Program-made: the position numbers and the translations under genes | Source: Eledone cirrhosa | Taxonomy: Eukaryota | Direction of reading: 5' to 3' | NCBI GenBank assembly: GCA_964016885.1 | Contig: OZ024740.1 | Location: 68,448,001-68,512,000, forward strand | Length of the DNA: 64,000 nt | Part shown: positions 29,673 to 30,360 of the stretch, piece after piece | Position numbering within the stretch: the first letter of the stretch is position 1 | Layout: every line of letters starts with the position of its first letter | The notes under the pieces: generated by a model | The model's input: the letters and a program-made list of their open reading frames with translations, nothing else | Told to the model about the DNA's origin: nothing | The model's database searches: none

Positions 29673-29790
29673 TATATATATATATATATATATATATATA
29701 TATATATATATATATATACATTATGAAGAGAGAAGAAACATTTAGATATAATTAGTAATAAAATGTATCATACCTAAACTGCTCCTAAAT

Positions 29791-29880
29791 TCCTCGACTA
29801 CGTAGTTTCGTGGCATAAACAAAAACAATATATCATAAAGATATAGAGTCCTTGCGAGGTCTGCCGACTTATCAAGAGGA
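29791..29880 (-). ncRNA. Type I hammerhead with a U3-A8 core and large loop 2, family G
   Basis: tcctc TTGATAA gtcggca..(about 45 nt)..tgccac GAAA ctacgtag TC gagga. Confidence 0.75.
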
Positions 29881-30145
29881 TACCTCATTTTACTAGTCTC
29901 AAGAACGCGTCTACACGACGTGAGAAAGAATCCCAAAAGGCGGAGGGGGAGATAGTCACGCGATATAACGGTCGATAAACAGAGCTAAGCCTCTTATAAC
30001 CCCGAAGAAAATACCACGGAGGCGGAGGGGGTATTTATATCGAGGCCGTAGAAGAGGTGGTGAAGAAGGCGAGAAGTATGAGTAATGGAAGCTTTCCAGC
30101 TGTCCCCACACTTCAAAGATTGCTCGACCAGAGGGAGTTATTAAC

Positions 30146-30360
30146 AATATATTTAGAAACACACAGATACATGCGGACACACACATATATACATGAATGC
30201 ATCCGCACCCAACTGTGAGTTAAGGGTGCCAACTTCACCGATGTTGCTCACCGATTGAGCAACATCGGTGAAGTTGGCACCCTTAACTCACAGTTGGGTG
30301 CGGATGCATTCATGTATATATGTGTGTGTCCGCATGTATCTGTGTGTTTCTAAATATATT
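30146..30360. repeat. Palindrome with 105-bp arms and a 5-nt loop
   Basis: 30146-30250 is the reverse complement of 30256-30360; loop ccgat. Confidence 0.95.

Follow-up and report, generated by a model that had tools for sequence, protein, structure and literature searches.

The locus examined here raises the question of whether a hammerhead ribozyme with a U3-A8 core pair and a perfect palindrome lying next to it, both set between TA-rich tracts, are parts of a single mobile-element insertion, how recent such an insertion would be, and whether its unusual core arose separately from that of other elements. The locus, element G (29720-30360), lies in a stretch of 64,000 nucleotides of Eledone cirrhosa DNA (the window; contig OZ024740.1, positions 68,448,001 to 68,512,000), which consists of microsatellite-rich animal DNA with a GC content of 30-40% over most of its length. 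We consider it likely that G goes back to a single, recent insertion event, carried out in trans by a Penelope-like reverse transcriptase (RT)/GIY-YIG protein, and that the inserted fragment, non-coding and of pLTR or retrozyme type, is truncated at its 5' end and carries a head-to-head inversion.

The type I hammerhead of G is encoded on the minus strand at 29791-29880, as an earlier note on this DNA had proposed; all core parts are present, and to a degree beyond shuffle expectation. In minus-strand order, it consists of UCCUC, UUGAUAA, helix II, GAAA, CUACGUAG, UC and GAGGA, and it conforms to the core YUGAnRA...GAAA...UH with a Watson-Crick 3-8 pair, with three helices and open ends in helix I. 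Helix I (29880-29876/29795-29791) comprises the 5 bp of UCCUC/GAGGA and is followed by the core heptamer UUGAUAA (29869-29875), in which a U3-A8 pair replaces C3-G8. The helix II region (29810-29868; 59 nt in all) contains 6 bp, among them G10.1-C11.1, and a bulged C; it encloses an insert of 46 nt (29816-29861), not 45 nt as previously counted, which itself folds into a 14-pair hairpin of -12.8 kcal/mol, a stability reached by none of 1000 mononucleotide shuffles. Helix III (29797-29806), ACUACGUAGU, is self-complementary, a perfect 10-nt palindrome closed by A15.1-U16.1, and is the predicted dimer interface; the triplet is GUC, and cleavage is predicted after C17 at 29796. A small hairpin, GAGG-UAU-CCUC (29876-29886), is a competitor of helix I. 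A strict descriptor (helix I at least 5, helix II at least 6, palindrome at least 4; thresholds chosen after G had been seen) found no match on either strand when the window was shuffled 200 times, block by block and with dinucleotides preserved, and a loose descriptor yielded 0.23 U3-A8 matches per dinucleotide shuffle. An Rfam scan of G matched no hammerhead model and returned two weak, unrelated matches instead; the 150 listed of the 313 matches in the whole window likewise include no hammerhead family, so that variants of this sort may simply escape the models.

Folding calculations indicate how this ribozyme might operate. For the 90-nt motif as a monomer, the MFE structure is 1.1 kcal/mol more stable than the hammerhead fold, in which helix III is paired to less than 10%. 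The MFE structure of the dimer, in contrast, is a double hammerhead; its energy is -60.9 kcal/mol, compared with -47.2 kcal/mol for two monomers. Helix III has a predicted duplex energy of -12.9 versus +1.5 kcal/mol as a hairpin; it is predicted to form only in the dimer. With native flanks, the penalty of the hammerhead fold is 1.4 kcal/mol (short flanks) or 7.2 kcal/mol (full 3' flank), and with the full 3' flank helix I pairing falls to zero. In longer flanks the 5' strand of helix I is captured by the upstream hairpin at 29876-29886, and helix I is missing from two of the three predicted folds of flanked dimers. The 141-nt region around the hammerhead has a z-score of -0.89 against shuffles, and its MFE structure is not the hammerhead. 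Since each transcript carries a single ribozyme and a hairpin competes with its helix I, little cleavage is expected of the G ribozyme by itself; it should cleave mainly as a trans dimer or with the assistance of a PLE protein. It would thus work like a member of the known class of dimer-type PLE hammerheads and be a passenger in a 5'-inverted PLE insertion.

The earlier note further held that G is unrelated to another element of the window, family B, and that the U3-A8 core recurs in separate families. Family B, a label that we took over together with G (the other family letters are our own), was identified as the only other U3-A8 motif in a repeated element. Its hammerhead (27284-27379, minus strand) has a helix II region of 56 nt and a near-palindromic helix III of 19 nt that would form a strong dimer duplex (-30.7 kcal/mol); within the family, the core was seen in a single insertion, in both of its arms, and three other B pieces are without it. 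A further copy of this family (19414-19544) combines a short-end piece with an oppositely oriented long-end piece without overlap, as in twin priming. No alignment between G and family B exceeded those of 200 pair-shuffles (same-orientation p 0.79-0.92), no nhmmer match was obtained, and no homology was found outside the core. To judge from these comparisons, G and B are separate families. Their best local match, 15 of 18 columns, spans the core into helix II, and they have a long helix II insert and the GUC triplet in common, so that a common ancestry is possible. Hence, neither an independent nor a shared origin of their U3-A8 cores follows from the sequences; the recurrence of this core in separate families stands and has already been published (PMC4209133), whereas its independent origin does not follow.

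Family C lies nearer to G than family B in helix III (a similar CUAnnUAG) and in the 3' tail; the similarity of G and C 3' of the core has an uncorrected p of 0.025, which as one of 30 tests is a lead but not significant. One arm of family C (38657-38738, plus strand) has a U3-G8 core and the other C3-G8, and the U3-G8 arm is a possible intermediate toward U3-A8. The helix II region of family C measures 51 nt. Family A (36581-37515, 43288-44210, 50791-51829) is tandem and retrozyme-like, with a unit of about 445-466 nt, a C3-G8 core and a CUAG helix III. One of its dimers, the 466-bp tandem at 43288-44210, is 100% identical; at 50791-51829, an inverted arm starts about 3 nt past the predicted cut at 51135. 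A TG/TA-rich segment lies inside the hammerhead unit of family A, and some copies end in this segment. An alignment of G with family A, whose score was reached by none of 200 shuffles, was rejected as evidence of homology, as it reflects merely TA/TG low complexity.

Apart from its ribozyme, G consists of a non-coding, pLTR-like body (29720-30145, minus strand) and a palindrome (30146-30360). The 3' junction of the body lies 76 nt beyond the predicted cut, and the body is more stable than its shuffles (z -3.17). Beside this junction, a hairpin at 29734-29786 (minus strand; -14.9 kcal/mol, with 4 of 1000 shuffles equally stable) is a candidate RT binding or start element. Both ends of G abut TA sequence, as had been claimed: the 3' end adjoins the (TA)n target tract at 29670-29718, which also abuts the 3' end of a pLTR fragment (29376-29669) unrelated to G, and the other junction lies in a TA-rich tract (30354-30547). 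The palindrome is as perfect as the earlier note had described it: the direct arm (30146-30250, minus strand), which holds a TG/TA-rich segment, and the inverted arm (30256-30360, plus strand) are identical at 105 of 105 positions and are separated by the 5-nt loop CCGAT (30251-30255), which falls within an 8-nt direct repeat whose other copy is 13 nt away. The inverted arm ends in an ATATAT-type microhomology to the target, and this outer arm end is one of only four TA-like hexamers in the 536-nt direct part of G; because it is TA-like, 6-8 nt may be target DNA, which leaves a firm arm of about 97-98 bp. The point at which the inverted arm breaks off is 350 nt upstream of the cut, so that G has a single, unduplicated ribozyme; the two ends of G lie 426 nt apart. 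No target duplication is readable within the TA sequence. The body also contains (29938-30039) a 12-nt G/C-rich direct repeat (29938-29949 and 30020-30031) followed by a TATA-like octamer (30032-30039), which we take to be promoter-like by comparison with the usual consensus, at the level of motifs only; their order is the usual one on the plus strand, pointing toward the palindrome.

The inversion of G has counterparts in its immediate surroundings. Fourteen inverted structures, G included, were measured in the window, and seven head-to-head inversions besides G have hammerhead sequence in both arms, which are 86-97% identical. They are located at 10573-11192 (92.7% arm identity; 10491-11192 with its tail included), 27272-27641 (93.5%; 27192-27641), 37600-37758 (95.4%; 37530-37758), 37890-38797 (96.8%; 37772-38797), 44424-44528 (96.1%; 44344-44528), 50452-50776 (93.7%; 50366-50776) and 62208-62344 (85.7%; 62154-62344), the tails being about 70-120 nt long. 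Their ends lie in TA, with the exception of one direct end, which lies in a CA tract. A long and a short 3' end are present in each, both downstream of the cut and at family-specific distances from it (long/short, in nt: 97/17 and 97/17; 144/52 and 137/48; 89/21 and 93/19; 185/65). This pairing agrees with a pair of RT starts, on two strands, and it may tell more than G itself. The direct end of G, 76-77 nt past the cut, is near the long-end range of 89-185 nt, but G differs from all seven in its other end: their short end lies downstream of the cut, whereas the inverted arm of G is without the ribozyme. The PLE-type 5' inversion that had been proposed for G agrees with these seven analogous structures and with the structure published for PLEs (PMC3846280, PMC8557442).

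The arms also bear on the age of the insertion. With 0 differences in 105 positions, the arm divergence of G is at most 2.8% (95% bound), and the pooled divergence of eight other inversions is 6.0% (75 of 1249 columns). The pool comprises the seven hammerhead inversions and an eighth inversion in tandem family A (50950-51263, arms 93.6% identical); excluded from it were a perfect tail-to-tail palindrome of 40 bp and four structures in which no hammerhead was recognised. The chance of finding 0/105 at the pooled age is P ~0.0015, and it is 0.033 against the youngest other inversion. G is probably, as judged from its arms, the youngest of a common class of inversions. The earlier description of the insertion as very young therefore holds in a relative sense, but not beyond it, as homogenisation or consensus polishing would look identical.

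An origin by PLE retrotransposition would proceed as follows. A PLE endonuclease would cut the TA tract, and one strand would prime cDNA synthesis 76 nt past the ribozyme cut, so that about 535 nt are copied. The inverted arm could then arise in two ways: the internal ATATAT could serve as the priming site for the other target strand, or the cDNA end could fold back on itself at TCA-CCGAT-TGA. In either case, the arm would be joined to the target through TA microhomology. The sequence does not distinguish second-strand priming from fold-back at the loop. The G/C-rich repeat and the TATA-like octamer would fit, at motif level, the self-priming on an antisense template proposed in PMC3846280.

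Three other histories of this locus have to be weighed against such a single insertion. G might be a composite, namely a pLTR fragment, solo and truncated at its 5' end (29720-30145), beside which a second, small fold-back insertion (about 30153-30353) landed in the TA sequence, with ATATAT left between the two. The outer 6-8 nt of the arms are indeed TA-like and mirror images in their own right, the TA tract already hosts the unrelated element at 29376-29669, and the arm is without a hammerhead and is structured by itself (z -3.39). Such a history, however, requires the second element to have landed no more than about 7 nt from the end of the first, and a separate insert would have two equal ends, whereas those of the comparison inversions are unequal; moreover, the TG/TA-rich segment is internal to the family A unit, and copies end there. 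We regard a composite as unlikely. We think it somewhat more doubtful still that G was inserted without an inversion and later acquired it by host snap-back repair at an unstable TA sequence, or that an older inversion was homogenised arm-to-arm; in either case, the perfect match of the arms would date the repair or homogenisation event and not the insertion. The 5-nt loop with its 3-bp seed is in keeping with repair, other perfect duplications exist in the window (the 466-bp tandem at 43288-44210 and the 40-bp arms at 23494-23573), and the arm of G has no family-type short end. Yet the 5' side of a hammerhead element is precisely where the inversion is found, in G and in the seven others alike, and these seven (86-97%) have escaped homogenisation.

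Fold-back chimeras typically show perfect identity with a tiny loop. The palindrome of G has just this look, and it might thus be a sequencing or assembly artefact (a fold-back read or a polishing error) beside a genuine hammerhead fragment. We hold this to be very improbable, as the mirror ends after 105 bp at the TA microhomology and gives way to unique sequence, and a like geometry with diverged arms occurs seven times in the window; palindromic junctions are also described for PLEs in PMC3846280, where those of rotifers are argued not to be assembly artefacts.

A single PLE-mediated insertion accords in most respects with published systems. The U3-A8 core, the inverted 5' end and the TA target have each already been described for PLEs, and G is in this sense real but largely ordinary. 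U3-A8 hammerheads are present in Cercyon PLEs and in two separate Penelope-associated families of Schistosoma; they account for two of 56 representatives, both from S. mansoni, with about 1,300 matches in that genome (PMC4209133). The same study reports palindromic helices III, opposite-strand pairs 100-700 bp apart and low activity even as dimers. G resembles these hammerheads in its type I fold, short helix I, G10.1-C11.1 pair, GUC triplet and a palindromic helix III that implies dimers; 8-nt palindromes are found in the representatives from Aedes and Saccoglossus, and a bulged helix II in that from D. virilis. It differs from them in having no linked ORF, and in its 46-nt helix II insert, as the loops of the 56 representatives, judged by eye, measure about 9 nt or less (PMC4209133). 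The core covariation of G has been reported from several natural examples and is said to be active in vitro (PMC3088659; Perreault et al. 2011); any activity of G itself is a prediction. Long helix II inserts may escape standard descriptors, and such ribozymes may therefore be undercounted.

Inverted, 5'-truncated PLE copies and a bias toward (TA)n are reported in PMC8557442. G has the inverted 5' copy, palindromic junction, microhomology joins, (TA)n target and lack of a readable duplication in common with insertions of Penelope/Poseidon, Neptune and Naiad (PMC3846280, PMC8557442); those, however, have a tail of 30-40 bp, whereas the arm of G stops upstream of the ribozyme and its ends lie 426 nt apart. 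Frangieh et al. (2024; PMC11167929) showed that a PLE protein cuts and extends both strands and that reverse transcription starts internally, past the hammerhead; this hammerhead is dispensable, and its cleavage is assisted by the protein. Like PAc (Poseidon of Anolis carolinensis) in that study, G has a 3' end shortly past the hammerhead and beside a stem-loop, an AT-rich target and a hammerhead predicted to be inactive alone; PAc differs in its C3-G8 pair, in an ORF beginning in helix II and in priming without target homology, where the inverted end of G has TA microhomology. Non-LTR retrozymes, which are probably PLE-mobilised and commonly occur as monomers, likewise consist of a non-coding type I unit of a few hundred bases and low GC content; G, known here from genomic DNA, is a single unit with one ribozyme and without the tandem repeat of a retrozyme (PMC7229834; bioRxiv 10.64898/2026.07.22.740005). 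One of nine dimers tested cleaved (bioRxiv 10.64898/2026.07.22.740005), and a review also treats the dimer cleavage studied by Lunse et al. (PMC6765202).

What is unusual in G is the 46-nt helix II insert, the arm that ends upstream of the cut and the 10-nt palindromic helix III. One might read these features as those of a currently active PLE-mobilised family whose two RT starts bracket a hairpin-gated ribozyme (a 426-nt tail), but this seems unlikely to us; it is equally doubtful that, as part of this reading, GAGG-UAU-CCUC would restrain the ribozyme and trans dimerisation or a PLE protein would activate it. If G were such an active family, priming on two strands and at two sites could be read from the genome in G together with the long and short ends of its neighbours, which would help to study the formation of PLE inversions. 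The formation of inverted ends in PLEs and the role of their hammerheads are stated to be open in PMC8557442 and PMC11167929. In this context, G is useful as a near-pristine product of PLE retrotransposition, although it carries little weight by itself; its unmutated junction, 5-nt loop and off-pattern second end could separate fold-back from two-strand priming, given more copies.

The earlier note had also suggested that other copies of G be searched for a linked PLE ORF. Neither a second copy nor a linked ORF emerged from the window or from 44 PLE loci detected with a PLE profile in a species-genome collection: there is no second copy of G in the 64 kb, the collection contains no exact match to the G pattern, and the 44 loci include no relative (best E 2.5). 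No RT and GIY-YIG ORF was found within G, as expected of a truncated or non-autonomous copy, and none of its six frames matched Pfam. The membership of G among the PLEs thus rests on its architecture: it has a sense hammerhead near the 3' end, a head-to-head inverted 5' copy and an AT-rich or microsatellite target, but it lacks the short, optional tail that separates two RT starts on the downstream side of the hammerhead. The possibility that the arm is the end of a PLE ORF, encoding 33 aa and reaching a stop 7 nt short of the end of the arm, was considered and rejected; of 1.84 billion proteins searched, the one that matched this peptide (E 1.5e-4) is a repeat protein unrelated to PLEs. The 44 PLE loci gave four hammerhead descriptor matches, none of them U3-A8 or G-like, and two loci (L005 and L014) have a plausible type I C3-G8 hammerhead downstream of the ORF; a mapping of core type onto the RT tree was dropped, as four matches are too few. 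The ORFs of all 44 loci sit inside public bacterial genome bins, and these loci are probably host-animal contamination. A literature search, largely confined to open-access papers, found none on cephalopod hammerheads; PMC13282606 nowhere mentions ribozymes, and the motifs of G are absent from one supplement (a short methods-and-table file) of a repeat paper on Octopus vulgaris.

The window itself contains three divergent PLE-like ORF remnants, at 20317-22056 and 24782-26619 (both minus strand) and at 40183-42123 (plus strand), none with a sequence match to G. The last, a 597-aa open frame that is 5'-truncated at a TA tract, has Pfam matches to RT and GIY-YIG at 40330-42120, with a Cys motif preceding GIY-YIG; a protein search found its relatives in molluscs, the named ones being bivalves, at 43-45% identity, while a second PLE protein search named neither an organism nor a clade; going by the description given in PMC8557442, it may be Neptune-like. 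The ORF at 24782-26619 is flanked by repeats at 23494-23895, 26650-27142 and 29376-29669 with 139-nt subrepeats, in which no hammerhead satisfying the descriptors used was found; within the first of them, 23494-23573 is a perfect tail-to-tail palindrome centred on TA with 40-bp arms. Single C3-G8 hammerhead-like motifs occur at 11403 (minus strand) and 33803-33841 (plus strand). In addition, a tRNA-Ser-like sequence (28066-28138, plus strand) is bracketed by 77-bp inverted repeats (27869-27945 and 28156-28233), and a SINE-like dispersed repeat of about 185 nt is present in at least nine copies, at 4375, 8800, 11675, 11980, 33010, 52720, 57900, 58340 and 62540.
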